Virus record (IMG/VR): IMGVR_UViG_3300042891_000377 | Coordinates: 40,172-104,171 of that record | DNA: 64,000 nt | Strand: one strand, 5' to 3' | Origin: a virus | Shown here: piece after piece, positions 3,512 to 40,829 of the stretch | How positions within the stretch are numbered: the first letter of the stretch is position 1 | How the letters are laid out: every line of letters begins with the position of its first letter | Notes under the pieces: generated by a model | What the model saw: the letters and a program-made list of their open reading frames with translations, nothing else | What the model was told of the DNA's origin: nothing | Database searches by the model: none | Made by a program: the position numbers and the translations under genes

Positions 3512-3832
3512 ATGGAAATTATATTTGGTAGAGAAAATGCAGAAAAACTGCGTGAAAAATATACTGTGTTAGATTTAGAAACAGTTGAAAAAGATGGAGT
3601 TGAATTAGAAGTATTCTGCTTAATACCAGCTGATAAAATTAGTCTTGGTGATTTGCCTACACTAGAGCAGTATACTAATCTACATGCGGAATTTCTTGAA
3701 GGATATAAGAATAAACACTACGACTACTGCCGTCAGTGCATCACTTACCTAATGGGTAAGTTTTCCGGTGAAGTTGACACGTTTTATGAAGAAATACTGC
3801 GTAGAATCGATGAAATAGACCCTCCAAAGTAA
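3512..3832 (+). CDS. Hypothetical protein resembling the C-terminal region of the CHASE2 adenylate cyclase at 17176-19200
   Basis: IIFGRENAEKLREKYTVLDLETV vs LIIGPKTAEYCKDDFPVVWLDNI; HAEFLEGY vs HEEYRKEY; FYEEILRRI vs YYELMIERM. Confidence 0.6.
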   Translation: MEIIFGRENAEKLREKYTVLDLETVEKDGVELEVFCLIPADKISLGDLPTLEQYTNLHAEFLEGYKNKHYDYCRQCITYLMGKFSGEVDTFYEEILRRIDEIDPPK

Positions 3833-3853
3833 TACTATAAGTTAATTATAATA

Positions 3854-3885
3854 GAGCCCCTGTTAAATAATACTAACGGGGGCTT
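3854..3885 (+). promoter_or_regulatory. Hairpin overlapping a TAAATA late-type promoter in front of csgF
   Basis: GAGCCCCTGTTA-aataatac-TAACGGGGGCTT; TAAATA at 3864-3869. Confidence 0.55.
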
Positions 3886-3889
3886 TCTC

Positions 3890-4387
3890 ATGATTAGGAC
3901 ACCTATCTGCAATCTTTTAATGGTCGCCATGCTAATTGCCGGCGCCAATATCGTGCAGGCTGGGGAAATGGTCCATACCTTTAACAGTCCGGCATTCCAC
4001 GGACAAGGATTTGGTATACATGCCCTTACAATTAAGCAATTAGAAGATCAAGCCAAAGACAAGCGCGAATCTGCCGCAGAAGCTATACAGGCTAAAGCAG
4101 AATCTGCTGCACTTAATACTCCGCAGGCACGCTTTATTGCTAATCTGGAATCGAGAATTTATAGTCAGTTGGCTAAACAACTAACTGATAGTATGTTTGG
4201 GGAAGGTGCTACTTGTACTACAGCAGGCATAGTATGTGGTAATATTCCAAACTTAGGTGGTAACAGTATCCAGTGGAGTCTTGGAGCAGGTAGTGATAAT
4301 GGTTTGATTATTATCACCATACAAGATTTAAGTAATGTTGACAATGTAACAACTATGAAAGTACCGGCGGGCTCATTTTATTTTTAA
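3890..4387 (+). CDS. csgF: Curli assembly protein CsgF-like
   Basis: Signal peptide then GEMVHTFNSPAFHG (CsgF N-terminal motif); FIANLESRIYSQLAKQL; directly upstream of csgG. Confidence 0.8.
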   Translation: MIRTPICNLLMVAMLIAGANIVQAGEMVHTFNSPAFHGQGFGIHALTIKQLEDQAKDKRESAAEAIQAKAESAALNTPQARFIANLESRIYSQLAKQLTDSMFGEGATCTTAGIVCGNIPNLGGNSIQWSLGAGSDNGLIIITIQDLSNVDNVTTMKVPAGSFYF

Positions 4388-4396
4388 GGATGATAA

Positions 4397-5263
4397 ATGA
4401 ATAAAACACTTATATCCTTATTAATAGCCGCGCTGTTAACAGGATGCGCTACAGGTAGTGTTATTAAAGAAAAAATAACAGGTGAGCAATTTGACAAGCC
4501 TGAGATAGTACGTGAAACATATTTTACTAAACCAGAGAATAAGGTATTACCTCCAAGTGGTGGGCCTATTCCTATAGCAGTATATAGTTTTCAGGATAAA
4601 ACTGGACAGCGTAAGAATATACCTAACGTGGCTAGTTTTAGTACTGCGGTAACACAGGGTGCAGAAGCATATCTAATTGGTGCTCTACAAGACGTAGGCG
4701 ACCAACGTTGGTTTACTGTGTTAGAGCGTGTGGGCTTAGATAACTTGATTAAAGAGCGTCAAATGATTCGTCAAATGCGTGAACAATATCAAGGACGTGA
4801 CGCTAAGGCATTACCACCAATGATGTTTGCTGGTGTTATTGTAGAAGGAAGTGTAACAGGTTATGATAGTAATCTGCTTACAGGAGGTAGTGGTATGCGC
4901 ATACTAGGTATCGGAGCACAAACGCAATACCAAAGTGATACAGTTACAATTACTCTAAGAACAGTAAGCGTTAATACAGGTGAAGTATTAACAACTGTAA
5001 CAGTTACTAAAACAGTGTTAAGCTACATGGACAAACTTGGTATACTAAAGTTTGTTGAAGAAGGCACAAAAGCCGTTGAAGCTGAAACTGGTATGAGTAT
5101 CAATGAAAGTGTCAATAAAGCAACTAGCCTAGCAGTTAAGGCTGCTGTAATTGCTACTATTCGAGAAGGAGTGCGTAAAGGGCACTGGGCATTTAAGGAA
5201 GAGCCTAAGCCTGTAGTACAAACAGATGGTGTAAAATACCCTTTGTTAGAAACAAAAAAATAA
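4397..5263 (+). CDS. csgG: Curli secretion channel CsgG (outer-membrane lipoprotein)
   Basis: Lipobox LTGC; AVYSFQDKTGQRK, STAVTQGA, WFTVLERVGLDNLIKERQMIR. Confidence 0.92.
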   Translation: MNKTLISLLIAALLTGCATGSVIKEKITGEQFDKPEIVRETYFTKPENKVLPPSGGPIPIAVYSFQDKTGQRKNIPNVASFSTAVTQGAEAYLIGALQDVGDQRWFTVLERVGLDNLIKERQMIRQMREQYQGRDAKALPPMMFAGVIVEGSVTGYDSNLLTGGSGMRILGIGAQTQYQSDTVTITLRTVSVNTGEVLTTVTVTKTVLSYMDKLGILKFVEEGTKAVEAETGMSINESVNKATSLAVKAAVIATIREGVRKGHWAFKEEPKPVVQTDGVKYPLLETKK

Positions 5264-5296
5264 TAATAGGATTTTAAAAATCCAAGGAGCAACACG

Positions 5297-6082
5297 ATGA
5301 AATATAATTTAAAAGCAACGGTAAGTATGATGTTTTTAGCATTGTCAACATCGGTAATGGCCGCAGGCCCAACAGGTCCTAACCGTGTTTACATTGAACA
5401 ATTGGGTAACACCAATAATGTTACAATTGAACAAGTTGGCGGCACTAACGATGTTGGTGGTACCGCTGGTAGTGTAGCAGTTGACGCAACAGGTCTAAGT
5501 ACATTAACAGTAACAGCACCTAGTACAAGTAACTATGCTACAATTAACGGCAGTAATAACGGTGTAACTATAACGCAAACTGGTGACGATAATCAATCAC
5601 AGTACAACATTAAAGGTGGCAATAACAGCTTTACAAGTACTCTAACTGGTGATGGTAATCAAAGTAAACTTACTATTGGTAATAGCACCACTAATGGTAT
5701 GCGTAATACTGTTACTGAAACTGTTACAGGTAGTACTAATATGTTGATTACTAATATTGTTGGTAGTGACAACGCATTATCAACTACTATCACTGGTAGC
5801 AGTAACCAACTGACTACTGATGTAACTACTAGTAATGCTGATATTACCAACACTATTAGTGGTAGTAACAATATATTTAATATACAACAACGAGATGCTG
5901 CAGGCAGTGCTGGCCATAGTTTAATCACATCAACTACAGGTGATTATAACAGTATTACTACACAGCAACAAGGTACAAATGATACTACATTGAATATTAG
6001 TACAACTGGTGATCATAACACTATTACTATACGTTCAAGTAGCAGTGCTATAGTAAGCCCAGTATCAGCAATAGTGAGATAG
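5297..6082 (+). CDS. Secreted curlin-repeat (CsgA/CsgB-like) beta-solenoid protein
   Basis: Signal peptide; repeated IxQxGxxN / GxxN units rich in T, N, G, S; follows csgG. Confidence 0.75.
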   Translation: MKYNLKATVSMMFLALSTSVMAAGPTGPNRVYIEQLGNTNNVTIEQVGGTNDVGGTAGSVAVDATGLSTLTVTAPSTSNYATINGSNNGVTITQTGDDNQSQYNIKGGNNSFTSTLTGDGNQSKLTIGNSTTNGMRNTVTETVTGSTNMLITNIVGSDNALSTTITGSSNQLTTDVTTSNADITNTISGSNNIFNIQQRDAAGSAGHSLITSTTGDYNSITTQQQGTNDTTLNISTTGDHNTITIRSSSSAIVSPVSAIVR

Positions 6083-6085
6083 TCA

Positions 6086-7177
6086 ATGAAACTATTGCTT
6101 GCTTTAGCGTGCTTAGTAGCAACTACTAACGCATGGGCAGGCATTGGAACTGTAAGCGATACTAAAGGTACCGCTTGTTCAATAGAGCGTGCTAAACAGA
6201 CCCTGCCTGGCAACAAAGGTGCGACCATAGAAAGTATGGATACCTATGTTACAGGCGGCTGTGTTAGCAATATCACATTTAAAGATGACACCAAAGTAAA
6301 AATAACAGAAAACAGTCGACTAATGATAGACGACTTTGTTTACGATCCTAAAAAATCCGACGCAGGTAAACTAGCTCTTAAAGTAGGTATGGGCACAGTA
6401 CGTTATGCCTCTGGACAAATTGCTAAAAACAATCCACAAAAGGTAGATATTAAAACACCCACAGCTAGTATTGCTGTTCGCGGTACAGACTTTAACATGA
6501 CTGTAGACGAAGCAGGACAGAGTTTAGTTATTCTTGTGCCTAGCTGTAAAGATGGTGAAAAGATTAAAGAATACGAGCTAGAAGAAAACTTATGTAAAGT
6601 GGGCAAGATCGAAGTCAGCACACTGGCTGGTGTAGTTACCTTAGACAAAGCATTTGAAGGTACGTATGTAACCAGTGCTAACATGATGCCTAGTCCTCCA
6701 GCTATTATTAACACAATTGAAAGTAAGATTGGTAACAGTCTTATTATCACTCGCCCACCCGAAATTGTCAAAGCTAGTAAAGAAGCAGGTAAAAGCAAAC
6801 GTGATCTAGAACAAGAAGAACTAGAAGCTATTCAAGCAAGTCAACTTGCTCAACGTATAGCTAAAGAAGGTGAAGCTAAAGCTGTAGTGTTGCCTTATAG
6901 CTTTGACAGTGGTAAATCAGGATGTAATCCGGCAATCAATGTCTGCGTTAAATGGGAAAATCCGGATGGTGAAAGCATACAGGCCAAAGGTCGAGGTATA
7001 GCGTTTCGTCAAAGTGAAGATCACTATGCAGAAGTTAAAACACAGGGCTACGAAAGTAATACGTCAATTGAAATAATTCACGATGATAATATTGCCTCAG
7101 CTACAATTGGTTCGGGCGATCCAGGTGGCAATGTAGTGCGTATCAAACAGAATTCTGGAGTGTTAAGACGACAATGA
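6086..7177 (+). CDS. Secreted FecR-domain protein
   Basis: Signal peptide; ITFKDDTKVKITENSRLMID; TPTASIAVRGTDF (FecR signature). Confidence 0.8.
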   Translation: MKLLLALACLVATTNAWAGIGTVSDTKGTACSIERAKQTLPGNKGATIESMDTYVTGGCVSNITFKDDTKVKITENSRLMIDDFVYDPKKSDAGKLALKVGMGTVRYASGQIAKNNPQKVDIKTPTASIAVRGTDFNMTVDEAGQSLVILVPSCKDGEKIKEYELEENLCKVGKIEVSTLAGVVTLDKAFEGTYVTSANMMPSPPAIINTIESKIGNSLIITRPPEIVKASKEAGKSKRDLEQEELEAIQASQLAQRIAKEGEAKAVVLPYSFDSGKSGCNPAINVCVKWENPDGESIQAKGRGIAFRQSEDHYAEVKTQGYESNTSIEIIHDDNIASATIGSGDPGGNVVRIKQNSGVLRRQ

Positions 7178-8301
7178 AACGGCTCCTTGTAATCTTATTA
7201 TTAGTTTGCTCCAATACCTGGGCCGCAGGACTTGCTGGACTTAATTATCAGAACTATGCCGCAGGTGGTGCTATGCCATCATATACGCAAGATGCTAATG
7301 GAAACATCACTAATCGCACACTACTATCAACTGGAACTGTGAATACGGTGGGATTAACTACTAGTAGTGGAGCAGGCTTGCCTACTCGCAGTGATGGATT
7401 TATAGTTCGTTTCTATGGTTACATCAATATAGAAACAGCAGGTACATATTACTTTGGCGGGCAAGCAGACGACGGTATCCGTATTAAGATTAATAACATA
7501 TCTGTGGTTAATAGTTGGATAGAATCTGGCGGCGCATTTAGAGAAGGCAGCATTACTTTGTCAGCAGGAGTTGTTCCGGTAGAAGTAATGTATTACGAGA
7601 ACGGCGGTGGACAAATGGTTAACTTCCAATGGTTTATGAACGGCTATTGGCAGATTGTACCTACAGCGTCGATAGCTACAGATACTACCTATTGGGCGCC
7701 TGCGGCTCCTGTACTATGTTGCGGCGGCAGTTCGTCAAGTTTTAATGCTAGTCCATCTAATGTAACAAAAGTACAGTCATACGCCACAAGGAATACCAAT
7801 GACAGTCAGGTGTACATAGACCAAATTGGTAATGATAACGAGATCACAGTTAACCAAACAGGTACTAAAAATAACTACACAGAATACAATAGTAGTGGTA
7901 GTTTCAATACCGTTAATATCTCACAAACTGGTAATAGTTCAACAACAGCAAACTACGTAGAACTAAATGTCAACGGTGATAGTAATATAGTAAATCTAAC
8001 GCAGCAGAGTACAGGTGGTGCCAAGGGTATCTACGCTACAGTTAACGATGACAATAATAATGTAACAGTCTTACAGAAAGACGGTGGTAATGCTTACTTA
8101 AACTTAAACCTAAGTGGCGGTAATAAAACTGTAGACATAACGCAACAAGGCAGTGCTGCACACATGGCTGACATTACTCTAACTGGAGCAGGTGCTAGAA
8201 GTTTAAACTTAAATCAGCAAGGTAGCACACAACAGTTTTACAGTATTAATAGTAGTTGCGCTAGTGCCTGTCAGGCAATAACAGTAATACAAGGACAATA
8301 A
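7174..8301 (+). CDS. Secreted PA14-domain plus curlin-repeat protein
   Basis: PA14 motifs GTYYFGGQADDGIRIKIN and YYENGGG; C-terminal QxGxxN repeats. Confidence 0.75.
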   Translation: MKRLLVILLLVCSNTWAAGLAGLNYQNYAAGGAMPSYTQDANGNITNRTLLSTGTVNTVGLTTSSGAGLPTRSDGFIVRFYGYINIETAGTYYFGGQADDGIRIKINNISVVNSWIESGGAFREGSITLSAGVVPVEVMYYENGGGQMVNFQWFMNGYWQIVPTASIATDTTYWAPAAPVLCCGGSSSSFNASPSNVTKVQSYATRNTNDSQVYIDQIGNDNEITVNQTGTKNNYTEYNSSGSFNTVNISQTGNSSTTANYVELNVNGDSNIVNLTQQSTGGAKGIYATVNDDNNNVTVLQKDGGNAYLNLNLSGGNKTVDITQQGSAAHMADITLTGAGARSLNLNQQGSTQQFYSINSSCASACQAITVIQGQ

Positions 8302-8334
8302 CAGCAGAATCAGTGCTGTAACGTTATTAATAAC

Positions 8335-8371
8335 TGTTGTATTTTTACAACATTGTTATCAAAAAACAACA
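8335..8371. promoter_or_regulatory. Tandem palindromic operator-like sites upstream of the porin promoter
   Basis: TGTTGTA-tttt-TACAACA (8335-8352) followed by a degenerate copy TGTTATC-aaaa-AACAACA. Confidence 0.45.
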
Positions 8372-8376
8372 AAAGG

Positions 8377-8405
8377 TTGACTCTCCATTATAAATACTGT
8401 ACACT
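8377..8405 (+). promoter_or_regulatory. Sigma70-like promoter with an embedded late promoter (TATAAATA 8389-8396)
   Basis: TTGACT-17-TACACT. Confidence 0.6.
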
Positions 8406-8452
8406 GATAGTATAACATATTAGTGTTATCCAATAAAAGGAGAAGTATCGTA

Positions 8453-9664
8453 ATGAAGAAATTATTATTAGCAACATTATTAGCAAGTATGTATTCAACT
8501 GCGAACGCTGGCATTCAAATTCCAGCTGGTGATTGGACTCTAGACATCGGCGGCGTTGTAAACGCTTACTACACAAACACACGCGGCACAGGTGATGCTG
8601 TAGTTGGTGGCGCCGGTGGCCCTAATACCAATGGTCAACGCAATGAATCAAATATTACAACTGGTCTATTACCAAACGTATTATCAGTTTCTGGTAAATC
8701 ACGTCAAAATGATTTAGACATTGGTTTCACTATTGCAATCAATCCAGGCGCTTCAACAACAGCAGCTGGTGATCAAGGCGCTAACCAAGAAAATCGTCAA
8801 GCATTTTTGACTATCGGTGATAAATCATGGGGTAGTGTAAAACTAGGTAAAGACCTAGGTATTTTCGCTAGTGATGCTATCTTAAACGACATGACATTGT
8901 TAGGTGTTGGTTCTGGTGCTGGCGCACTAGCTGGTAACACAACTACATTGGGTCGTATTGGTACTGGTTATATGTACGCTGACTGGAAATCACAAATTGC
9001 TTACACATCACCAAACTTTAATGGATTTCAATTCACAGCAGGTGTAACACAAGCATGGAATGCTCAAACAGCTGACTTAAATGCAGCAACAGCAGGTGTA
9101 CAAGCTGCTTCAGCAACTTCAACAGGCCGTGGTGGTGCACAACCAGCTTTCGAAGGTAAAGTATCTTACTCATTAGCAGGTCCCATTGCTGCTAAAGTTT
9201 GGTCAAGTGCCATTACACAAAAAGTTGAAGGTGTTACTGGTGCCAGTGCCGATGACCGTGCTTATGCTTGGGACGTTGGTACAAACTTAACAGCTGGTCC
9301 ATACGGTTTAACTGCTTATTACTTTGATGGTAAAGGTATTGGCCGTACACTTCAATTAGCTGATGGTTTTGATACTACTGGTCGTCGTCGTGATTCAAAC
9401 GGTGGTTATGTACAAGGTACATACACATTGCCAACAGCAACTAAACTTGGCGTAAGCTGGGGTCAAAGTAAACTAGATCGTAACAGTGGTGAAACAGCAA
9501 CCGCATTAGTTTCGAAAAACGAAATGTGGACACTTGGTGCTTACCACCCACTTACTAAATCAGTTAACCTAGTAGCTGAATACTCAGACGTTAAGTCAGA
9601 AGCACAAAACGGTGCTGAAGGCAAATCACGCTCAGTATCGGCAGGTGCTATCTTATTCTTCTAA
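8453..9664 (+). CDS. Gram-negative general porin
   Basis: AGGAG RBS, signal peptide, ENRQAFLTIG..WGSVKLGK, IAYTSPNFNGFQF, C-terminal Phe. Confidence 0.88.
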   Translation: MKKLLLATLLASMYSTANAGIQIPAGDWTLDIGGVVNAYYTNTRGTGDAVVGGAGGPNTNGQRNESNITTGLLPNVLSVSGKSRQNDLDIGFTIAINPGASTTAAGDQGANQENRQAFLTIGDKSWGSVKLGKDLGIFASDAILNDMTLLGVGSGAGALAGNTTTLGRIGTGYMYADWKSQIAYTSPNFNGFQFTAGVTQAWNAQTADLNAATAGVQAASATSTGRGGAQPAFEGKVSYSLAGPIAAKVWSSAITQKVEGVTGASADDRAYAWDVGTNLTAGPYGLTAYYFDGKGIGRTLQLADGFDTTGRRRDSNGGYVQGTYTLPTATKLGVSWGQSKLDRNSGETATALVSKNEMWTLGAYHPLTKSVNLVAEYSDVKSEAQNGAEGKSRSVSAGAILFF

Positions 9665-9688
9665 GATTAACTTCTTAGTCTAATAATT

Positions 9689-9715
9689 AAAAAGCCCACT
9701 CCGGTGGGCTTTTTT
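9689..9715 (+). terminator. Intrinsic terminator
   Basis: AAAAGCCCAC-tccg-GTGGGCTTTTTT. Confidence 0.85.
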
Positions 9716-9742
9716 ACGGAGATAACATCATTTGGTTAAAAA

Positions 9743-9849
9743 TGTAACAAATTGTAAAAATATTGCTTGACAGGTGGCCGGTTATCATATACACTAGTAA
9801 ACATATAGCAAATCACATTTGTAACAAGATGTAACAAACTATATAAATA
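9743..9849 (+). promoter_or_regulatory. xoxF promoter region: sigma70-like promoter, flanking direct-repeat pairs and late promoter
   Basis: TTGACA(9767)-17-TACACT(9790); TGTAACAAAT-TGTAAAAA (9743-9760); TGTAACAAGA-TGTAACAA (9820-9837); TATAAATA 9842-9849. Confidence 0.6.
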
Positions 9850-9946
9850 AAGTTGTTATTAAGGGTCCTTAGTAACATTTTCAAAACTTGTGGTCCGCGG
9901 CATACAGCAACCGGCACGTTTTTATTTAAACACAAGGGAGATGTAA

Positions 9947-11812
9947 ATGAAGTTAAAATCAATTAAAGTAGCATTAAGTTTAGTTTTAGCATTACCAGCA
10001 GTAGCTTTCGCAGCAGCTGACCAAGAAAAAGCAATGAAAGACGCTAACAACTGGGTTGGCCCACGTGGTCAATACGACAACCAAGGTTACAGTGCATTAG
10101 CACAAGTTAACAAAGGTAACGTTAAAGGCCTTAAAGCTGCTTGGACATTCGCTACCGGTGTAAACCGTGGCCACGAAGGTTCACCAGTAGTTGTTGGTAA
10201 CATGATGTACGTTCACACAGCGTTCCCAAACAACGTTTACGCTCTTGACTTAAACGACAATCAAAAAATCGTTTGGTCTTACTTCCCAAAACAAGATCCA
10301 TCAGTACAAGCTGTATTGTGCTGCGATAACGTTTCACGTGGTCTTGGTTACGGCGACGGTAAAATCTACCTACAACAAAACGATGGTAACTTGGTTGCTT
10401 TAGACGCTAAAACTGGTGCTAAAGTATGGTCAACTTTAATCAACGATCCAAAAGTCGGTGCTACTAACACTAATGCTCCACACGTGATCAAAGATAAAGT
10501 ACTGACAGGTTGTTCAGGTGCTGAATTTGGTGTTCGTTGCTTTATCGCAGCTTACAACTTAAAAGACGGTTCATTAGCATGGAAAGCATACTCAACAGGC
10601 CCTGATGCTGAAATGTTAATCGGCGAAGGCTTCAACAAAGATACACCTGAGTACAGCGCACTATCAGTTTACCAAGACGTAAACGGTGGTAACAAATTAG
10701 GTGGTTCTTTCAACACTATCCCTAATGACAAATTAGTAATTGGTCAAAAAGAGTTAGGCACACGTACATGGTTGAAACCACAAGCAGTTAAAGATGGTTG
10801 GCAACATGGTGGTGGCTCTGTATGGGGCTGGTGGCCGTATGATGCTCGTACAAACTTGGTTTACTACGGAACAGGTAACCCATCAGTTTGGAACCCAGAT
10901 GTACGTCCAGGCGACAACAAATGGTCTATGACTGTTTTCGCTCGTGACTTAGACACTGGCGTTGCAAAATGGGGTATGCAAATGACTCCACACGATGAGT
11001 GGGATTACGATGGTATTAACGAAGTAATCTTGTTCGACAAAGGTGGTAAAACATACGCATGGCACCATGACCGTAACGGTTTTGCTTACACTTGGAATGC
11101 TGGTAACGGTAAATTAGTTGCTGCAGAAAAAGTACACCCATTCGTTAACTGGGCAACTGGTGTTGATTTGAAAACAGGCGTGCCTAACAAATTGGCTACT
11201 GCTTCAACTCACCAAGATTACAATGCAAAAGGCGTTTGTCCAGCTGCTTTGGGTACTAAAGACCAACAACCAGCTGCGTACTCACCAAAAACTGGTTTAA
11301 TTTACACTCCATTGAACCACGTATGTATGACATACGAGCCAGTTGAGTCTAAATACGTTGCAGGTCAACCATGGGTTGGTGCTACATTGACCATGTTCCC
11401 AGGTCCAGACGGTGTAATGGGTGGTTTCGGTGCTTACGATCCAATGACAAACAAAAAAGTTTGGTACAACAAAGAGAAATTCTCTGCTTGGGGTGGTGCT
11501 TTAACAACTGCTTCAAACTTAGTATTCTTCGGTACTTTAGATCGTTGGTTTAAAGCTGTAGATGCATCATCAGGTAAAGAACTATGGAAATTCCAAGTTG
11601 GTTCTGGCGTGATTGGTAATGCATTCACATACGGTCACAAAGGTAAACAACACGTTGGCGTGCTATCAGGTATCGGTGGCTGGGCTGGTGTGGCGATGAA
11701 CCTTGGTATGACTAACCCAACAGACGCTTTAGGTGCTGCTGGTGGTTATGCTGAATTAACAAAATACAACGCGGCTCCTGGCGGCGGTGCATTAACAGTA
11801 TTCAGTCTTTAA
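9947..11812 (+). CDS. xoxF: Lanthanide-dependent PQQ methanol dehydrogenase XoxF (probably the Methylophilaceae XoxF4 type)
   Basis: Signal peptide; vicinal CC in LCCDNVSRG; metal ligands in GAEFG and GTGNP; DEWDYDG has the extra Asp that marks Ln-binding MDH (MxaF has DYAG). Confidence 0.93.
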   Translation: MKLKSIKVALSLVLALPAVAFAAADQEKAMKDANNWVGPRGQYDNQGYSALAQVNKGNVKGLKAAWTFATGVNRGHEGSPVVVGNMMYVHTAFPNNVYALDLNDNQKIVWSYFPKQDPSVQAVLCCDNVSRGLGYGDGKIYLQQNDGNLVALDAKTGAKVWSTLINDPKVGATNTNAPHVIKDKVLTGCSGAEFGVRCFIAAYNLKDGSLAWKAYSTGPDAEMLIGEGFNKDTPEYSALSVYQDVNGGNKLGGSFNTIPNDKLVIGQKELGTRTWLKPQAVKDGWQHGGGSVWGWWPYDARTNLVYYGTGNPSVWNPDVRPGDNKWSMTVFARDLDTGVAKWGMQMTPHDEWDYDGINEVILFDKGGKTYAWHHDRNGFAYTWNAGNGKLVAAEKVHPFVNWATGVDLKTGVPNKLATASTHQDYNAKGVCPAALGTKDQQPAAYSPKTGLIYTPLNHVCMTYEPVESKYVAGQPWVGATLTMFPGPDGVMGGFGAYDPMTNKKVWYNKEKFSAWGGALTTASNLVFFGTLDRWFKAVDASSGKELWKFQVGSGVIGNAFTYGHKGKQHVGVLSGIGGWAGVAMNLGMTNPTDALGAAGGYAELTKYNAAPGGGALTVFSL

Positions 11813-11826
11813 TCTGTAGTTAACCT

Positions 11827-11853
11827 AAAAAGCCCACTTCGGTGGGCTTTTTT
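11827..11853 (+). terminator. Intrinsic terminator
   Basis: AAAAGCCCAC-ttcg-GTGGGCTTTTTT; near-identical to those at 9689 and 40800. Confidence 0.88.
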
Positions 11854-11874
11854 ACCTCTGCAATAAATACTTTT

Positions 11875-11973
11875 ATGTATACTTGGCGCGAAACGTTTAT
11901 CTTTATTGAAATCATTCTATTCTTCACACTCGTGTTTTCTATCCCCTACATAGAACAACTAATCCAACCGTAA
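11875..11973 (+). CDS. Small hydrophobic protein, 32 aa (not in ORF track)
   Basis: MYTWRETFIFIEIILFFTLVFSIPYIEQLIQP; TAAATA at 11864-11869 just upstream. Confidence 0.4.
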   Translation: MYTWRETFIFIEIILFFTLVFSIPYIEQLIQP

Positions 11974-12007
11974 CAAAAATTTAATCTGTTTGTAACACTA
12001 CTGTAAT
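11968..12007 (+). promoter_or_regulatory. Pho box array (PhoB-type binding sites)
   Basis: Four heptamers at exact 11-bp period: CCGTAAC 11968, ATTTAAT 11979, TTGTAAC 11990, CTGTAAT 12001 (consensus CTGTCAT), upstream of phosphate genes. Confidence 0.75.
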
Positions 12008-12029
12008 CTTTGTGTGTTTAAATATACAT

Positions 12030-12779: not shown

Positions 12780-12791
12780 GAGAGAATGTAA

Positions 12792-13793: not shown

Positions 13794-13802
13794 GGAAACA
13801 TT

Positions 13803-15212: not shown

Positions 15213-15220
15213 GAAACATT

Positions 15221-15310
15221 ATGTTTGAACTTTTTATAGATGCTGTAAAAGATATTAGCGGTATATTGGCGATAATGGCGGCTATTGGTATATGGTCATT
15301 TTTACTATAG
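15221..15310 (+). CDS. Small membrane peptide, 29 aa (not in ORF track)
   Basis: AGGA RBS; MFELFIDAVKDISGILAIMAAIGIWSFLL. Confidence 0.4.
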   Translation: MFELFIDAVKDISGILAIMAAIGIWSFLL

Positions 15311-15443
15311 ATTGCAAGAAAATTACTGGTCTTTAATGATTTTACGTATGTTATTTAGGTCAAAACGGTGTTACTATATGTATAAGTACTAGTAACAACA
15401 AAACATGTTGTGGTACTTTTAATAATTTACTAGGAGAAATACT

Positions 15444-15515
15444 ATGTGGACTAAACCAGCAGCCACTGAAATGCGTTTCGGTTTTGAAGTAACTCTTTAC
15501 GTAATGAACCGTTAA
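15444..15515 (+). CDS. pqqA: PQQ precursor peptide PqqA, 23 aa (not in ORF track)
   Basis: AGGAG RBS; MWTKPAATEMRFGFEVTLYVMNR with the E-x-x-x-Y motif; terminator follows. Confidence 0.95.
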   Translation: MWTKPAATEMRFGFEVTLYVMNR

Positions 15516-15537
15516 TTTTAAGGTCCATAACGTAAAC

Positions 15538-15560
15538 AAAGCCTCTTAGGAGGCTTTTTT
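15538..15560. terminator. Intrinsic terminator after pqqA (possibly bidirectional)
   Basis: AAAGCCTC-ttag-GAGGCTTTTTT. Confidence 0.75.
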
Positions 15561-16010
15561 ATTGGCCCGTGTTTCTGCCAAGGATGCTCTAATTTTTGCT
15601 CGTGTTTCTTCACTAACGACATGCCCTTTACGACTTGCGGCCCAATTAGCCATATGTTCTTCAGACTTCTTTTTGCCCTTCATTGCTTCAGAACGTTTTT
15701 TATTGGCTTCTTCTAACTTACCACTTGCTCGTTGTCTTTCTGTTCTAAGTTTACAACTTTCTCTGAGTTTTGCTTTAGATTCCTCAGACATGGGTTTCTT
15801 GCTGCCTTTACTCCTTGCCATAAACATTGCCTCATCTTGTCCCATTTGCCCAGACAATGCTTGCCAAGCACAATAGTCTTGCCAATTGCCGTGTTGTTCG
15901 TACAGCAAGCGATGCGCTTCTGCGTGAGCTTCTACGGTAAGTTCTATTAGGTTACTAGGATCGTCGGTGCCGCCTAGGTATTGAGGTAAGATGTGATGTA
16001 TATGTTTCAT
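15546..16010 (-). CDS. HNH homing-endonuclease-like protein with NUMOD3-like C-terminus
   Basis: HHILPQYLGGTDDPSNLIELTVEAHAEAH; repeats MSEESKAK, KSEEH, VSEETRAK; TAAATA on minus strand at 16016-16021. Confidence 0.75.
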   Translation of the reverse strand: MKHIHHILPQYLGGTDDPSNLIELTVEAHAEAHRLLYEQHGNWQDYCAWQALSGQMGQDEAMFMARSKGSKKPMSEESKAKLRESCKLRTERQRASGKLEEANKKRSEAMKGKKKSEEHMANWAASRKGHVVSEETRAKIRASLAETRANKKAS

Positions 16011-16041
16011 ACAGTTATTTATTATTGTTACTTCATAACCT

Positions 16042-16091
16042 ATAAACAAAACTTATTGCGACCATTTAAAAATACAATTAAAAAAACCTAT
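16042..16091 (+). promoter_or_regulatory. OxyR-like binding site upstream of ahpC
   Basis: ATAA-N7-TTAT-N7-ATTT-N7-CAAT (16042-16078) vs ATAG-N7-CTAT-N7-ATAG-N7-CTAT; extra ATTA-N7-CTAT at 16077-16091. Confidence 0.55.
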
Positions 16092-16164
16092 TAATCAGGC
16101 TTTTTTTATTAAAAATTTTAATATATAATATATGTACATTAACAATTTAATCAAGGGGAAGTAA

Positions 16165-16731
16165 ATGAGTTTAATCGGAAAACAAGTAGAAGCATTTAAA
16201 GCACAAGCATACCGTCAAGGTCAGTTTGTAGAAGTATCAGAGCAAGATTTAAAAGGTCGTTGGAGTATAGTATTCTTTTACCCAGCAGACTTTACATTCG
16301 TCTGCCCAACAGAATTAGCAGACTTACAAGACGTATACGCTAGTGACTTTAAAGCAATGGGGGTAGAAGTATACAGCGTAAGCACAGACACACACTTTGT
16401 ACACAAAGCATGGGCAGATGCTACAGACACAATCCGTAACATCACCTACACAATGATTGGCGATGCTAACCATCAGTTAGCTCGACAATTTGGTGTGCTA
16501 ATTGAAAGCGAAGGACTAGCTGATCGCGGTACGTTTGTTATTGATCCAGATGGTGTTGTACAGATCATTGAGATCAATCCAGGGGGTGTTGGCCGTGACG
16601 CAAAAGAACTATTGCGTAAAGTTAAAGCGGCAAAATACACTAGAGAGCATCCGGGTGAAGTATGCCCGGCTAAATGGCAAGAAGGAAGTGCTACCTTAGC
16701 ACCAAGTTTGGATTTAGTAGGTAAACTATAA
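16165..16731 (+). CDS. ahpC: Peroxiredoxin AhpC
   Basis: [13 protein letters not shown] and GEVCPAKW. Confidence 0.96.
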
Positions 16732-16736
16732 AAACA

Positions 16737-16763
16737 AAAAGCCCCAATTAAGGGGCTTTTTTA
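16737..16763. terminator. Bidirectional terminator between ahpC and cytochrome c
   Basis: AAAAGCCCC-aattaa-GGGGCTTTTTT. Confidence 0.8.
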
Positions 16764-17060
16764 TCACTGAGTTAACACCCATTTAACTAGCGTTTTAATA
16801 TCCTCGTCTTTGATCTGTGGACTCATTGGCGGCATTGGGATAGGACCCCATACTCCACTACCACCTGCTTTAACCTTTGCTACTAGTTTAGCCTCTACAT
16901 CTTGACCTTTGTATTTCTTAGCAACGTCTTTATACGCTGGACCTAAGATCTTATGATCAACTGCGTGACAAGCTAAACACCCACTTTTCTGTGCCAATGC
17001 TTGGTTAGCATTTGCTGTGATGCAACTACCTAATAATAATACTGCTAAAATAGTTTTCAT
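16764..17060 (-). CDS. Class I cytochrome c (c551/c552, c8 type)
   Basis: Signal peptide, CLACH haem motif, GPAYKDVA, GSGVWGPIPMPP with axial Met. Confidence 0.92.
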   Translation of the reverse strand: MKTILAVLLLGSCITANANQALAQKSGCLACHAVDHKILGPAYKDVAKKYKGQDVEAKLVAKVKAGGSGVWGPIPMPPMSPQIKDEDIKTLVKWVLTQ

Positions 17061-17175
17061 TTTAGACCTTTCATAAAAGTTAACTTACAATGTATTTAAC
17101 GCCGATAAACTATATCTATTTATTTTTGGTAGAATTTTGATTGACGAAAATTCCAAAAGAGTAAATAATAGTACT

Positions 17176-19200
17176 ATGATGAAAAATAAACTTAAAAAAC
17201 TCCTAGTCAGTCCGTGGACTGCGTTAATTACATTAGCTGTTATTGTAGTAGTAATCCTACAAGGACCTACATTCGTAGAGTCGGTTAGACTTAGATACTT
17301 TGACACACTGATTAGTGGCAAGGCTCCTACAGAAAATAATATCTATACTGTAAACATAGATGAAGCAACATTAGACAAGTATGGGCAATGGCCATTTAAG
17401 CGTGACAAGTACGCAGACCTAATTGATGACCTGTACAAACATGGCGCTGGCCTAGTTGTTTGGACTGTTATGATGCCAGAAGCAGACCGTCAAGGTGGCG
17501 ATGCGGCCTTGGCATTAGAGTTAGAGGACCATCCAGTTATCCTTACTAACATGCCCAGTGAAAAGTCTAAGAACATCCCACGTAAACCAGGCAGTGCTGT
17601 TATTGGTGACGAGTACAGCGACACAATTATCACCTATCCGGGTATCATTGCTAACATTCCAGAACTAGAACGTAATGCCGCTGGTGTTGGTATTGCTAAC
17701 ACATTCCCAGAGGTAGATGGTGTTAATCGTCGACTACCATTGTTCGTTGGTTATGACAATAACGTATATCCAAGTATTCCGTTAGAAGTATTACGTGTTA
17801 TATCGCAAGACTCAACATTCCAAGTTAAACTAAATGAATTTGGTGTTGAGAAAATGCGCATACCAAGTTTCCGTCCTATCAGCACAGATAGCTTAGGTCG
17901 TATCTGGGTAGACTGGAGTCAAAAGTCAACACAGGTATCAGCAGTCAACTTGCCTACAGACTTTGGTGGTGCTGTGGTTATTGTAGGCCTAAGTGCCGCA
18001 GGTTTAGCTAACCCAGTGCCAACTAGTATCGGTAGCGTATGGCCACAAGATATGCAGGCCGCTGTTATTGGTACGTTAGCTAACAACGTAAACATTGAAC
18101 GTCCATTCTGGGCAGACAATGCTGAACTGTTGGCTCTTATTGTTATCTCACTTATTATTTTAATCTTGAGCCGTTGGGTATATGTTGGCCTAGGAGTTGG
18201 CGTTGTATTGCTTGCGGCAATTACACCTGCAACAATGTATGCGTTTGCGCACTATAACTTCTTGTTTGATGCCATTGTGCCCACAGCAGGCGGTGTACTG
18301 GTTATGCTACACGCTTATGGTGTTAAGTTTATTAGCGAGTTCTTACAGAAACAACAGATCAAGAAACAATTTGGTAGCTACGTTAACCCTACTATTGTTG
18401 AACGCTTACAAAAGAATCCAGAGCTGATTAAACTAGGCGGCGAACGTAAAGAACTTTCAATTGTTATGACTGACCTACGTGGCTTCACAACACTTGGCGA
18501 ATCGTTTGGTGATGATGTAGAAGGACTTACACAGATCATGAATGACTACATGACAGCATTGAGTATTCCTGTGCTAAAGAATGATGGTACTTTAATTAAG
18601 TTTATCGGTGATGCTAGTTTACACGTACACGGTGCTCCGTTGGATGATGCTAATCACGCTAAGACTGCGGTGCGTACTGCACTCGAAATGATCAAAGCCA
18701 TTGAAGACTTTAACGTAGAACTTGTTGCTAGTGGCCGGCCACCGGTTGGTATGGGTGCTGGTGTTAACACAGGTGAAACCTTAATTGGTAACATTGGTGC
18801 TAAGAGCAAGTTTGGTTATGACGTTCTAGGTGACAGTGTAAGTACTGCGGCACGTTTAGAAGGACAAACTAAGTCATATGGTGTGTTACTAATCATCGGT
18901 CCTAAGACTGCTGAATACTGTAAAGATGACTTCCCTGTAGTATGGTTAGACAACATTGCCGTTAAAGGTAAAACTATTGGCTTAGATATCTACACAGTTG
19001 GTCGTACTAATCTTTATATGCACGAGGAGTATCGTAAAGAATATACTCGTGGTAATTGGGGCAAGGCTATTGTATGGGCTAAAAAATTAGTCAACAACGA
19101 TGATGTTGATATTAAACATTACTATGAACTAATGATTGAACGTATGGAACAGGGTGTTCCTGCAAACTGGGATGGCACTTATCACGCCACTTCAAAATAA
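17176..19200 (+). CDS. CHASE2-domain class III adenylate cyclase
   Basis: NIDEATLDKYGQWPF (CHASE2), 3 TM helices, TDLRGFT, KFIGDA, YDVLGDSVSTAARLEG; TAAATA at 17162. Confidence 0.9.
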   Translation: MMKNKLKKLLVSPWTALITLAVIVVVILQGPTFVESVRLRYFDTLISGKAPTENNIYTVNIDEATLDKYGQWPFKRDKYADLIDDLYKHGAGLVVWTVMMPEADRQGGDAALALELEDHPVILTNMPSEKSKNIPRKPGSAVIGDEYSDTIITYPGIIANIPELERNAAGVGIANTFPEVDGVNRRLPLFVGYDNNVYPSIPLEVLRVISQDSTFQVKLNEFGVEKMRIPSFRPISTDSLGRIWVDWSQKSTQVSAVNLPTDFGGAVVIVGLSAAGLANPVPTSIGSVWPQDMQAAVIGTLANNVNIERPFWADNAELLALIVISLIILILSRWVYVGLGVGVVLLAAITPATMYAFAHYNFLFDAIVPTAGGVLVMLHAYGVKFISEFLQKQQIKKQFGSYVNPTIVERLQKNPELIKLGGERKELSIVMTDLRGFTTLGESFGDDVEGLTQIMNDYMTALSIPVLKNDGTLIKFIGDASLHVHGAPLDDANHAKTAVRTALEMIKAIEDFNVELVASGRPPVGMGAGVNTGETLIGNIGAKSKFGYDVLGDSVSTAARLEGQTKSYGVLLIIGPKTAEYCKDDFPVVWLDNIAVKGKTIGLDIYTVGRTNLYMHEEYRKEYTRGNWGKAIVWAKKLVNNDDVDIKHYYELMIERMEQGVPANWDGTYHATSK

Positions 19201-19211
19201 AGGATTAGATT

Positions 19212-19937: not shown

Positions 19938-19938
19938 T

Positions 19939-20724
19939 ATGAAATATTTTATAGTATTAATACTGTTTCTATCAACGTCAGCTATAGCAAAACCTATTAC
20001 TGCTAAAAGTTTTTTAGTGGCAGATAACACAGGCGAAGTTATATTAGAAAAGAATGCCGACCGTGTACAGCCCATTGCTAGCATTACTAAACTAATGACA
20101 GTAATGGTAGTGCTAGACGCCCACCAAAACTTAGATGAAATGATCACATTGGATCGCAGATTAGTTGGCAAGTATCACACTCGATTGCCTCGCAGTGTTA
20201 AACAACTTACTCGTGGTGAATTGATTGATCTTGCTATTGTTAAGAGTGATAACCTTGCCGCATATACATTAGGCGCAAATTATCCGGGCGGTTTAACACG
20301 ATGTATTGCTGAGATGAATCACATTGCGTTTGTACTAGGTATGTCAAATACCACATTTGCTGACCCAACAGGACTAGACGCAGACAACGTCAGTAACGCT
20401 CGTGACTTAGGCAAATTAGTTTTAGCCGCAAAAGAATATACGGAGATTACCGAAGCAAGTGGTAAACCTAATGTAAGTATCAAAGTTAAACGTCGTTGGT
20501 GGCAGTTTGGTAACACTAATCCAATGGTTAGAAATAGCAATGATGTACGAGTGAGTAAAACAGGTTATATAAATGAAAGTGGTGGTTGTGTGGTTATGCT
20601 ACTTGATACTGAATTAGGACAACGTGTGATTGTATTGTTGGGTAGTAAAAATACTCGTACACGTTTCCCAGAAGCACAAAAAATCGCTGTAACAGTTAGT
20701 AACAGCGATATTAATGTTGATTAG
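19939..20724 (+). CDS. D-Ala-D-Ala carboxy/endopeptidase (peptidase S11, PbpG-like)
   Basis: PIASITK (SxxK), SDN, KTG; signal peptide. Confidence 0.9.
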   Translation: MKYFIVLILFLSTSAIAKPITAKSFLVADNTGEVILEKNADRVQPIASITKLMTVMVVLDAHQNLDEMITLDRRLVGKYHTRLPRSVKQLTRGELIDLAIVKSDNLAAYTLGANYPGGLTRCIAEMNHIAFVLGMSNTTFADPTGLDADNVSNARDLGKLVLAAKEYTEITEASGKPNVSIKVKRRWWQFGNTNPMVRNSNDVRVSKTGYINESGGCVVMLLDTELGQRVIVLLGSKNTRTRFPEAQKIAVTVSNSDINVD

Positions 20725-21044
20725 TCACTGCCACCACTAGCGGCTTTATCGTCTTCTGATTTCTTATCAACATTGTTGATAGCTTTCTCAGCTTCTACAC
20801 GTTCAAATTCAATTGTCTTACCGCGTAAATGTAATACTGTGTTTACTTTTTGATTCAAACGTATCAAATCGTTGTCTAACATACGTATACGATCAATTAA
20901 GGCAATAAGCACAGTATTTGCGTCTGAAATGACTGGTTTTACCTCTTTTGTAGCCCATTCCCACACGTATTTGATGATGAATCCCATACCCACTGCCATA
21001 ACAATGGGAAAGCCATATTTGTTTACTAAATCTACTACATCCAT
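20721..21044 (-). CDS. Single-TM coiled-coil protein, paralog of 22523-22804
   Basis: GFPI-TM then LIDRIRMLDNDLIRL. Confidence 0.6.
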   Translation of the reverse strand: MDVVDLVNKYGFPIVMAVGMGFIIKYVWEWATKEVKPVISDANTVLIALIDRIRMLDNDLIRLNQKVNTVLHLRGKTIEFERVEAEKAINNVDKKSEDDKAASGGSD

Positions 21045-21595
21045 AACATTATTCCTTGTGTTAGTAATACAATGCCTACAGCCGCTAGGCCAAAGCTACC
21101 CCAGAACATTAGCATACTAGCAGCAAGGATACTAGCTGATAATAGAACAATGCTTAACTGGAACGCAGTGCTGGCATAACCAATCCACGGTAGTTGTGTT
21201 TTATAGTGATCACGATCTGCTTCTAACTGTTTAGCCTGTTTAAATAACTCTGGCTTACCTTCTGCGCCTTGATCATATGATAGAGCTTTTAGGTGATGAT
21301 GTTCTGCTAGCTTTTTATCACCACGAGCATTAGCTTCTTGCCCAGCTAGTTCATAGCTAGTTTGTTTAATACTTTTAGCTTGGTAGAATACCCATAGGTC
21401 ATTGGCCTGTATGGTATTGTTCATTACTTTGCTGTTCAGACTACCTTGGAACCACATGGTAAATGCCAGTAAGGCTGCAAAGACATTAATTACTAATCCT
21501 GCTTTGCTTTTGATCATACTATCAGCGGTTTCTTTCTCGCCACCTTTCTCTTCGTTTTTGCGTATCATTTTGATTACTGTATCGTGTAATGCCAT
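21035..21595 (-). CDS. Membrane protein (DUF4337-like)
   Basis: ANDLWVFYQAKSIKQ motif, three TM segments. Confidence 0.6.
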   Translation of the reverse strand: MALHDTVIKMIRKNEEKGGEKETADSMIKSKAGLVINVFAALLAFTMWFQGSLNSKVMNNTIQANDLWVFYQAKSIKQTSYELAGQEANARGDKKLAEHHHLKALSYDQGAEGKPELFKQAKQLEADRDHYKTQLPWIGYASTAFQLSIVLLSASILAASMLMFWGSFGLAAVGIVLLTQGIMLWM

Positions 21596-22371
21596 TATCC
21601 ATTGTCTCCGTTTTTCCAACGCTCTAATATAGCCGCATAGCGTGTAATGCTGTGATTAGTAAAGAAGTTAATTTCTCGACGTTTAAGTCCTACTACAAAT
21701 CCGCGCCATACGTCTTTAGTTACCTGCCATGCTGTTGGAGCACGTAAATGACCATAGTGATTCATATAGTACATACCACCAAAGTGTTTGTATGGCCAGG
21801 GCGGAACACGTGCTACAATATCAGCATTGTTGACGAATCGGAAATGTAGTACACCTGTTGCTTCAATTTTCTTAATGTAATTTTTAGTGCCTACTTTTGG
21901 ACTACCATAGGTAAACAAAGCCTGTGGACTAGGACAGTCTTCTGAATACTGTAGACGGTACGCAACCAATGTGGCCATTGCGGCTCCTAGACTGTGTCCA
22001 GTACACCATACTGTACGTGTCTTACCATGATCGTCGGCTAGGTCTTTTAGTTTAGGCCAAATGTTATCTACACTTTCTTTAAATCCACGATGGATCCATT
22101 TTACACCCGAGTCGCTTTTTACTGGACGAGCTTTTAGGTCACTGGCAATATCAGCAAACTCTGTAGGCTGTGTACCACGGCAGGCAATAATCAGATCAGT
22201 TTTGTTTTCTAACCAGTACGCTTGACTACCTTTGATATCTATTAAGGTTGATTTAAACCCAAGTTCTTTAAATGCCGCTTTACCTTCCTTTTCATCCAAG
22301 TAAGCAAGTTCGCTAATTTTAGCAAATAGCCAGGCTTGTTCCGGAAACGCTCGCATGTTTATTGCAGACAT
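21595..22371 (-). CDS. Class 3 lipase (alpha/beta hydrolase)
   Basis: ACRGT, IHRGF, TGHSLGAA, TYGSPKVG, DIVARVP. Confidence 0.88.
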   Translation of the reverse strand: MSAINMRAFPEQAWLFAKISELAYLDEKEGKAAFKELGFKSTLIDIKGSQAYWLENKTDLIIACRGTQPTEFADIASDLKARPVKSDSGVKWIHRGFKESVDNIWPKLKDLADDHGKTRTVWCTGHSLGAAMATLVAYRLQYSEDCPSPQALFTYGSPKVGTKNYIKKIEATGVLHFRFVNNADIVARVPPWPYKHFGGMYYMNHYGHLRAPTAWQVTKDVWRGFVVGLKRREINFFTNHSITRYAAILERWKNGDNG

Positions 22372-22523
22372 AATACTACTCCTATAAGAATTCCAAAAAA
22401 TACACCAACGGCAAAGGCTTTGAACATATCTATGTCATCCCATACTGCTTGTTTCTTAAGCCATGCTTTTGTATGTGCTGGTAAGCTGTTGTGCCATCGT
22501 TCTAATTTAGTAGGTTCAAACAT
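22359..22523 (-). CDS. Small protein with C-terminal TM helix, 54 aa (not in ORF track)
   Basis: MFEPTKLERWHNSLPAHTKAWLKKQAVWDDIDMFKAFAVGVFFGILIGVVLCLQ; coupled to both neighbours. Confidence 0.6.
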   Translation of the reverse strand: MFEPTKLERWHNSLPAHTKAWLKKQAVWDDIDMFKAFAVGVFFGILIGVVLCLQ

Positions 22524-22804
22524 TAATCTCTCCGAGCGTCGTGTTTGCCATCTGCGCGACTAATACGGTCTACATCTGGACGTAGGCCTAGTGCGTTAGA
22601 TACTACTGTATCGATACGTATAACGTCATGGTTCATTGTTTTAACACGATTGTCTAATGCTGTGATGATACCGGCCATGCCTTTGATACTGCCAAGCACG
22701 CCTTGTAATAGTAATTTAATTGTAAGGTAAACAAAGTACCCGCCGGCTAATGCCATTGCAACGGGGAAGCCTAAATCGCCAATTAGTTTGAAAATATCGC
22801 CCAT
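22523..22804 (-). CDS. Single-TM coiled-coil protein, paralog of 20721-21044
   Basis: GFPV-TM then LDNRVKTMNHDVIRI; AGGAG RBS; TATAAATA on minus strand at 22840-22847. Confidence 0.65.
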   Translation of the reverse strand: MGDIFKLIGDLGFPVAMALAGGYFVYLTIKLLLQGVLGSIKGMAGIITALDNRVKTMNHDVIRIDTVVSNALGLRPDVDRISRADGKHDARRD

Positions 22805-40198: not shown

Positions 40199-40441
40199 AT
40201 GAAAGTAAGCGTTTTATTAACAGCAGTATTATTAGCAGTTGCAAGCATTGCATCAGCTGAAGAAGTTAAACAGAACACTAACACTCAACATCAACTATCA
40301 AAACGTCCTTATGCAGCGCCTGCTGTAGATAAGGAAACATTTGATGGCGCGGTTGTTGATAAAAAAGAAGTAGAGAAACCTACACATTTAAATTTACACA
40401 TGTTGGGTAAGCGTCCGTTTATGGAAAAAGCGACTGACTAA
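40199..40441 (+). CDS. Small secreted protein with duplicated H-x-L-[SG]-KRP-[YF] motif
   Basis: GAGGAG RBS, signal peptide, HQLSKRPY and HMLGKRPF. Confidence 0.75.
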   Translation: MKVSVLLTAVLLAVASIASAEEVKQNTNTQHQLSKRPYAAPAVDKETFDGAVVDKKEVEKPTHLNLHMLGKRPFMEKATD

Positions 40442-40447
40442 AGAAAT

Positions 40448-40797: not shown

Positions 40798-40798
40798 A

Positions 40799-40827: not shown

Positions 40828-40829
40828 GC

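Follow-up and report, generated by a model that had tools for sequence, protein, structure and literature searches.

Why does a virus carry the genes of a curli pore together with the gene of a receptor-type cyclase, and do they belong to one system when almost 9 kb of other genes lie between them? This question is raised by a window of 64,000 nucleotides, positions 40,172 to 104,171 and the final 64 kb of the 104-kb IMG/VR virus record IMGVR_UViG_3300042891_000377, which is rated 19% complete. On its plus strand a run of csgF, csgG, a curlin gene, a gene for a FecR-domain protein and a second curlin gene is separated by an island from the gene of a CHASE2 cyclase. An earlier reading of the sequence alone (the original prediction) held that these genes are one module split by the island, and that a surface sensor signals through periplasmic FecR to the cyclase, letting the infected cell sense contact or superinfection and tune lysis or aggregation. 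We conclude that the csg block and the cyclase are, very probably, one functional unit. The signalling across the envelope is plausible by analogy but only in part supported by the comparisons made here.

Among named phages, Methylophilales phage Melnitz, which is T4-like, and Pelagibacter phage HTVC008M come closest to the window. The locus corresponds to what has been called the "viral curli (type VIII secretion) region" in this lineage of marine T4-like phages, here in a large uncultured phage. The module has almost certainly been published before. The phage csgF/csgG cluster was described by Zaragoza-Solas et al. (2020; PMC7029224) and, for Melnitz, by Buchholz et al. (2022; PMC9004378), and the whole region including FecR and an adenylate cyclase was described in podo- and myophages by Wittmers et al. 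(2022; PMC9599517), in agreement with the original prediction, which had noted reports of csgF and csgG in some T4-like phages. Viral curli proteins were found at 65 of 65 GOV2.0 stations and make up ~0.1% of assembled viral proteins, and Pacific metatranscriptomes gave evidence of viral curli expression (Wittmers et al., 2022). The CHASE2 and PA14 domains are unmentioned in these three papers. The window is a rearranged member of this published kind of module. It shares with Melnitz and HTVC008M the identical gene order csgF, csgG, curlin, FecR, second curlin and cyclase, the absence of CsgE and the small proteins that accompany csgF; its CsgG is 42-48% and its cyclase 37-41% identical to their copies, and a megablast search of the csg block against GenBank phages gave no match. 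Unlike in the published region, the cyclase of the window lies 8.9 kb off behind a cargo island, an additional paralog of the cyclase tail stands ahead of csgF, and the two phrog_18771 paralogs, which lie upstream of csgF in Melnitz and HTVC008M, follow the cyclase on the opposite strand.

Curli block, cyclase and the island between them

All five genes of the first half are present and intact by Pfam comparison, as had been read from the sequence (3890-8301, plus strand): csgF (3890-4387), csgG (4397-5263), the gene of curlin 1 (5297-6082), the FecR gene (6086-7177) and the gene of curlin 2 (7174-8301). The cyclase gene follows on the same strand at 17176-19200. In Melnitz and HTVC008M these six genes are contiguous, and the succession csgF, csgG, curlin and FecR recurs in those IMG/VR loci that are of sufficient length. 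Reciprocal surveys of gene neighbourhoods gave the same picture. When IMG/VR loci whose sequence continues for 9 kb or more downstream were collected around csgG, a cyclase was encoded within 10 kb of it in ~43 of 46 loci; around the cyclase, csgG and FecR were both found within 10 kb in 43 of 47 loci, where the arrangement varies and is in part inverted. Of the four loci that deviate in this second survey, three are the nearest kin of the window, in which the island is longer than the flank. Thus, csgG, FecR and the cyclase are co-located rather than independently distributed, and the view of two halves of one module separated by an island is borne out. Among GenBank phages, csgG was detected in four Melnitz and two HTVC008M records and in one 1.5-kb Salmonella phage fragment, and a full-length CHASE2 cyclase in the six Melnitz and HTVC008M records, with partial catalytic-domain matches in three other records.

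Both halves are preceded by a TAAATA late-type promoter core, which lies 21 nt before csgF (3864-3869, plus strand) inside a GC hairpin (~3855-3881), and 9 nt before the start codon of the cyclase (17162-17167, plus strand). We counted this core within 45 nt upstream of each gene, in distinct upstream regions of relatives. It precedes csgF in 60/89 relatives (67%) and the cyclase in 40/98 (41%), there 10-14 nt before the ATG, compared to 2.1% of random 45-mers. For the internal genes the counts were 0/86 (csgG), 1/67 (curlin 1), 0/92 (FecR) and 0/16 (curlin 2). The exact T4 late motif TATAAATA is absent upstream of csgF and of the cyclase; exact copies occur at 8389 and 9842, ahead of two genes of the island. 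The late promoter that the original prediction placed on the csg operon is therefore retained as a conserved core and not as the exact T4 motif. Scans for sigma-70 promoters and terminators did not rise above shuffled sequence. The cores point to two late-type transcription units, one with csgF, csgG, curlin 1, FecR and lectin-headed curlin 2 and one with the CHASE2 cyclase, and a promoter of its own for each unit would explain why the module tolerates being split.

The 8.9-kb island itself (8302-17175, both strands; Pfam and NCBIfam TIGR03075) holds genes for a porin, a XoxF-type pyrroloquinoline quinone (PQQ) dehydrogenase, a metallophosphoesterase, PstS, a porin O/P, an HNH endonuclease (minus strand), a peroxiredoxin and a cytochrome c (minus strand). 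In relatives, the gap between curlin 2 and the cyclase ranges from 16 nt to 6.8 kb and is filled by a glycosyltransferase, an epimerase, an amidoligase, a phosphoesterase or unrecognised genes, and the content differs even among the closest relatives. The slot that follows curlin 2 and precedes the cyclase serves as a site for cargo in general, which is new to this analysis. The XoxF-type methanol/ethanol dehydrogenase (9947-11812; TIGR03075, 613 bits) has a signal peptide and the WDYDG motif typical of lanthanide enzymes, and lies near the porin (8455-9664) and the cytochrome c (16764-17060). No obvious small open reading frame for PqqA was found between xoxF and the phosphoesterase gene (11812-12012). 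Another phage contig (L245) carries an 85% identical XoxF copy in the same slot. The HNH/NUMOD3 homing-endonuclease-like gene (15546-16049, minus strand) is flanked by a bidirectional terminator-like hairpin (15538-15557) and could have a role in moving cargo into the slot.

Proteins of the module and their neighbours

The pore block resembles bacterial curli systems such as E. coli csgBAC/csgDEFG in its CsgG lipoprotein pore, its CsgF and, probably, its secreted curlin-repeat subunits. CsgF (Pfam PF10614, E 6.7e-10, 39.7 bits; phrog_35372) has a signal peptide, and the outer-membrane lipoprotein CsgG (PF03783, E 3.9e-50, 170 bits) has the lipobox LLTGC, matches the solved E. coli CsgG structures with E 3.6e-48 and, of the constriction residues, keeps F56, while Y51 is replaced by Ile and N55 by Ser. 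Curlin 1 is a putative secreted CsgA/B-like protein with N-x-x-x-I-x-Q-x-G repeats (Curlin_rpt, 16.3 bits) and a signal peptide, whose gene follows csgG in nearly all csgG-seeded loci. Curlin 2 combines curlin repeats (23.4 bits, above the Pfam cut-off of 20.7) with an N-terminal PA14 lectin-type head (E 3e-10). Its start overlaps the stop of FecR by ATGA, an overlap kept in most loci, which suggests that curlin 2 is translationally coupled to FecR. In relatives the C-terminal repeats are conserved, and the head is a PA14 domain, an F5/8 type C (discoidin) domain or unrecognised; the lectin head thus appears to be swappable. All five envelope proteins (CsgF, CsgG, curlin 1, FecR and curlin 2) carry cleavable signal sequences. 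Unlike E. coli curli, the phage block has no CsgE, CsgC or CsgD, its subunits are longer and one is lectin-headed, and it is joined by a FecR-fold protein and a cyclase.

The cyclase is a receptor-type class III enzyme (CHASE2, E 6e-37; Guanylate_cyc, E 9e-18) and consists of a transmembrane segment, a periplasmic CHASE2 domain, three transmembrane segments, a catalytic domain and a conserved helical tail. Its hydrophobic segments span residues 22-40 and 332-393 in the numbering of a 687-residue reading; the ATG at 17176, at which the original prediction let the gene begin, is the best start by alignment of homologues. The enzyme retains both metal-binding Asp residues, the Lys/Asp pair expected for adenine and the Arg. 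The catalytic domains of phage cyclases fall into three sequence types, two with Ser for the transition-state Asn (GDxVS) and an Asp substrate residue and one canonical class IIIb type YTCLGDGVNLASRLEG, and each CHASE2 half may be met with different ones of these types, as if shuffled.

The gene ahead of csgF, orfA (3512-3832, plus strand), encodes a cytoplasmic protein of 106 residues and is, as had been proposed, a stand-alone paralog of the C-terminal ~100 residues of the cyclase. Comparison of the orfA family with cyclase tails by hhalign gave 98.5% probability (E 3e-15) over the last beta-hairpin and the helical tail of the cyclase; pairwise BLAST gave a weak match (E 0.17). The AlphaFold2 model of OrfA (mean predicted local distance difference test score 89.5) shows a beta-hairpin and three helices, and a fold search with it found no PDB match. 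orfA lies upstream of csgF in ~18/80 loci. The stretch between orfA and an exoribonuclease gene (685-1218) encodes a hexapeptide-repeat transferase and two paralogous fatty-acid desaturases (1226-3502). orfA directly adjoins the exoribonuclease gene in the closest relatives (L003-L006), and the stretch 1226-3502 is therefore a second recent insertion beside the module. At other loci desaturase homologues follow the DD-peptidase.

Downstream of the cyclase, the original prediction had placed a DD-peptidase, a lipase and holin-like proteins. All are present as genes, and the small membrane proteins are without similarity to known holins. The secreted DD-carboxypeptidase (Peptidase_S11, Pfam E 9e-42; 19939-20724, plus strand) follows the cyclase in ~10 csgG-seeded and 14/80 cyclase-seeded loci. 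Two small membrane/coiled-coil proteins are encoded on the minus strand, phrog_18771 paralog A (20721-21044; E 1e-29) and paralog B (22523-22804; E 5e-30), and both lie around a DUF4337 membrane protein and a class 3 lipase (Lipase_3; 21035-22371, minus strand; Pfam). The DUF4337/lipase pair is found between the paralogs in the window's own clade only, an order shared with L180-L184 and L028/L065. The phrog_18771 genes, by comparison, stand beside the module in 42-43/43 loci, immediately ahead of csgF or, in convergent orientation, behind the cyclase, and among GenBank phages they are confined to the six Melnitz and HTVC008M records. Paralog B reaches 92% identity where CsgG is ~54% identical. 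Both proteins begin with a hydrophobic segment and end in a charged tail. The pair probably corresponds to the "HK" genes of Wittmers et al. (2022), judging from position. An assignment as histidine kinase or as known holin or antiholin was rejected after comparison with PDB profiles, PHROG annotation and the Atlas, in which no such similarity was found.

The host of the window phage is probably not SAR11. A permuted two-piece transfer-messenger RNA (tmRNA) lies at 40427-40843 (Rfam tmRNA_permuted, 83.9 bits; beta_tmRNA, 84.3 bits; 29-residue tag according to ARAGORN), and Melnitz likewise carries a tmRNA. The beta-type match together with XoxF hints instead that the phage infects a methylotrophic betaproteobacterium. 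Phages that bear the module include two IMG/VR contigs of 353 and 372 kb (L040 and L062), one of which has terminal repeats and a CheckV completeness of 100%; thus, the block is not limited to pelagimyophages of ~140 kb.

FecR, its bacterial counterparts and the proposed relay

The exported FecR-fold protein (PF04773) consists of a signal peptide, a beta-sandwich (residues 49-218), a helix (225-260) and a C-terminal beta domain. Its AlphaFold2 model matches the C-terminal cell-surface signalling domain (CCSSD) of PupR (6ovk_R) with a Z score of 14.8, a root-mean-square deviation of 2.7 over 135 residues and a Foldseek E of 1.5e-5. No anti-sigma domain and no membrane anchor were found in the protein, and beyond the signal peptide it has no hydrophobic segment; the label "iron regulator" is therefore unsupported here. 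With FecR/PupR anti-sigma factors it shares the fold of the periplasmic domain, which in PupR binds the signalling domain of the outer-membrane transducer. Unlike that signalling system, the phage version is soluble and exported, and comes without a cytoplasmic anti-sigma domain, an extracytoplasmic function sigma factor or a TonB-dependent transducer. A C-terminal motif, GGNvvxIKQ, was considered as a curlin repeat and rejected, since hhalign gave 0.7% probability over 11 columns.

In bacteria, FecR genes do stand beside CHASE2 cyclases, as the original prediction had stated. The top "bacterial" matches of the cyclase (L083-L089, L094 and L115) were rejected as bacterial, because they carry csgFG and FecR and their taxon names are inconsistent; they look like phage contigs binned into metagenome-assembled genomes (MAGs) and were treated as such. 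The nearest true bacterial cyclases, with 36-37% identity, are from SAR116 (L090, L091 and L093). Here, the cyclase gene is immediately followed by a gene for a FecR-domain protein of 225-231 residues, and the operons also encode a C39-peptidase ATP-binding cassette (ABC) exporter, an HlyD protein and a TolC-like protein, with domains that bind cyclic nucleotide monophosphates (cNMP) on the ABC or HlyD parts. The phage pair and the SAR116 pair share the architecture of the cyclase and an adjacent small exported FecR-domain protein. However, the phage FecR is 130 residues longer than the SAR116 protein and ~25% identical to it, and the type I secretion system with its cNMP-binding parts is a visible output target in SAR116, whereas none is apparent in the phage with its type VIII pore. 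CHASE2 cyclases with type I secretion and a cNMP-binding ABC exporter or HlyD occur in L090, L091, L093, L105 and L107, contigs of SAR116 and "Rickettsiales" MAGs, and such operons resemble a secretion system gated by cyclic nucleotides, of a kind that appears to have received little study. In Burkholderia, a CHASE2 histidine kinase is encoded with a LysM/FecR operon (PMC5192318). In S. meliloti, an external protein acts by way of an outer-membrane barrel on the CHASE2 cyclases CyaD1, CyaD2 and CyaK (PMC13001267). CsgG was not found in the SAR116 genomes with the cyclase-FecR pair. The phage block appears to combine a curli pore with the kind of FecR/CHASE2 pair that in cells serves cNMP-gated type I secretion.

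From these comparisons a course of events can be proposed, and as an overall mechanistic picture we consider it evenly balanced between right and wrong. Late in infection, the phage would put a CsgG/CsgF pore into the outer membrane of the host. The two curlins would leave through this pore and build a short fibre on the cell surface, with the swappable lectin head at its tip or along its length; for their export and the formation of such a lectin-bearing surface structure we see about an even chance. The exported FecR-fold protein would act at the periplasmic face of the pore and may substitute for the missing CsgE, and a role at the pore is a prediction that could fall either way. The CHASE2 cyclase would sense the state of the envelope or periplasm and make cyclic AMP (cAMP), possibly via FecR as in the bacterial relatives. 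That FecR relays to the cyclase is possible and rather doubtful, and this step is the weakest of the proposed signalling. A link of the module to lysis or superinfection is speculation. In favour of the picture are, among others, the unity of the module, the FecR-CHASE2 gene pairs of bacteria, the response of the S. meliloti cyclases to a protein from outside and the PupR-like fold of FecR, given that the PupR domain docks on an outer-membrane protein.

A series of observations weighs against this picture. Pairwise protein distances were compared across 73 distinct phage modules (Spearman rho, which linkage and relatedness confound). FecR follows CsgF (0.74) and CsgG (0.61), from which it appears to evolve with the pore. 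With CHASE2 its correlation is 0.14 (Mantel p 0.015), no more than that of CsgG with CHASE2 (0.17). Within the cyclase, CHASE2 correlates with its own transmembrane region (0.67) and the catalytic domain with the tail (0.64), and CHASE2 with the catalytic domain at 0.10; divergence ranges are similar across all compared parts. The cyclase thus appears as a mosaic of two blocks that is exchanged independently of the pore block, and co-evolution of FecR and CHASE2 at a specific interface finds no support in these distances. A receiver for cAMP with a cNMP-binding or GAF domain was not found in the 104-kb record, in Melnitz, in HTVC008M or in two relatives of 350-370 kb (98-100% complete according to CheckV). 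The cyclase of the window has Ser in place of the transition-state Asn (GDSVSTAARLE), whereas other phage copies keep the Asn together with the class IIIb Thr. The repeats of curlin 1, which are clear by eye, score below the Pfam cut-off of 20.7 bits. Searches with PF10627 (CsgE, the periplasmic gate) and PF10610 (the chaperone CsgC) gave no match in the 104-kb record, itself a fragment; the original prediction had recognised neither protein, and the absence of CsgE counts against the picture. Seven alphaproteobacterial curli loci were searched by tblastn to a distance of 8 kb from csgG, and neither FecR nor a cyclase was detected, though a very distant FecR could escape such a search; the pairing of the two halves is therefore without cellular precedent. 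Cells infected with Melnitz showed no clumping (Buchholz et al., 2022; PMC9004378).

Rival functions and biological meaning

Three of the published ideas on the viral curli genes give the module a different purpose. A working curli fibre could make infected cells sticky and serve as "sibling capture", as a shield against superinfection or in aggregation (Zaragoza-Solas et al., 2020; Wittmers et al., 2022), in which case FecR and the cyclase would merely regulate the fibre or the host and no signal would pass inward from the surface. In favour of a fibre, the block is complete, as the pore, CsgF and both curlin-repeat proteins are encoded and each bears a signal peptide, and swappable lectin heads are typical of adhesins. 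We nevertheless consider a fibre without inward signalling rather unlikely, as the Melnitz result (PMC9004378) speaks against stickiness, the pore has no cytoplasmic part on which cAMP could act, neither a transcription factor nor a cAMP receiver was found in the phage records searched, and late expression leaves little time to regulate fibre synthesis. Alternatively, the CsgG/F pore or the FecR/CHASE2 sensor could time lysis together with the membrane paralogs, the DD-peptidase and the lipase (Buchholz et al., 2022), as the original prediction had also suggested. The small phrog_18771 proteins, with their hydrophobic N-terminus, charged C-terminus and constant place beside the module (42-43/43 loci), would suit such a role, as would the late-type promoters of the units, the DD-peptidase that follows the cyclase in some relatives and the adjoining lipase and DUF4337 genes. 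Yet the pair resembles no known holin or antiholin, an outer-membrane pore of ~1 nm can neither release virions nor depolarise the inner membrane, the lipase and DUF4337 genes are linked to the module only in the window's own clade, and the curlins and lectin heads would be left without a role. Lysis timing by the pore or the sensor is thus improbable in our view.

It was also raised (PMC7029224, PMC9599517) that a CsgG without CsgE stays open and admits nutrients or cofactors to the periplasm; the cyclase would then be an unrelated host-reprogramming gene kept by synteny. CsgE was indeed not found, and the same slot is rich in uptake cargo (porins, PstS, phosphate porin). Conserved CsgF, two curlins, lectin heads and FecR would however remain unexplained, and the linkage of the cyclase survives inversions and rearrangements, which favours function over synteny, so that an open import channel seems very unlikely. 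At the other end stands the envelope-spanning contact sensor in its complete form, in which the lectin-headed fibre would report neighbouring cells, particles or superinfecting phages via FecR to CHASE2, and cAMP would time lysis through a receiver that has escaped recognition, perhaps the cyclase-tail paralog or the phrog_18771 pair. For this complete chain we see a slim chance. Our preferred reading is the picture of a lectin-bearing surface fibre with FecR at the pore and a cyclase that senses the envelope.

This study adds to the published module the cargo slot, the TAAATA cores, the swappable lectin head, the paralogy of orfA, the companionship of phrog_18771, the SAR116 pairs, the co-divergence of FecR and the result that no cNMP or GAF receiver was found. 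The comparisons narrow the picture, in that FecR appears to go with the pore, the sensor and catalytic halves of the cyclase appear to be freely swapped and the lectin heads of the fibre seem exchangeable. The case of the window illustrates that the two halves tolerate separation, each with a late-type promoter core of its own, and the phrog_18771 pair brings two unstudied membrane proteins into focus as obligatory companions of the module. The widespread block is predicted to give hosts that lack curli a new surface structure and a second-messenger enzyme. If it senses or mediates contact between cells, it would bear on host finding or on the timing of lysis in phages of very dilute ocean bacteria.

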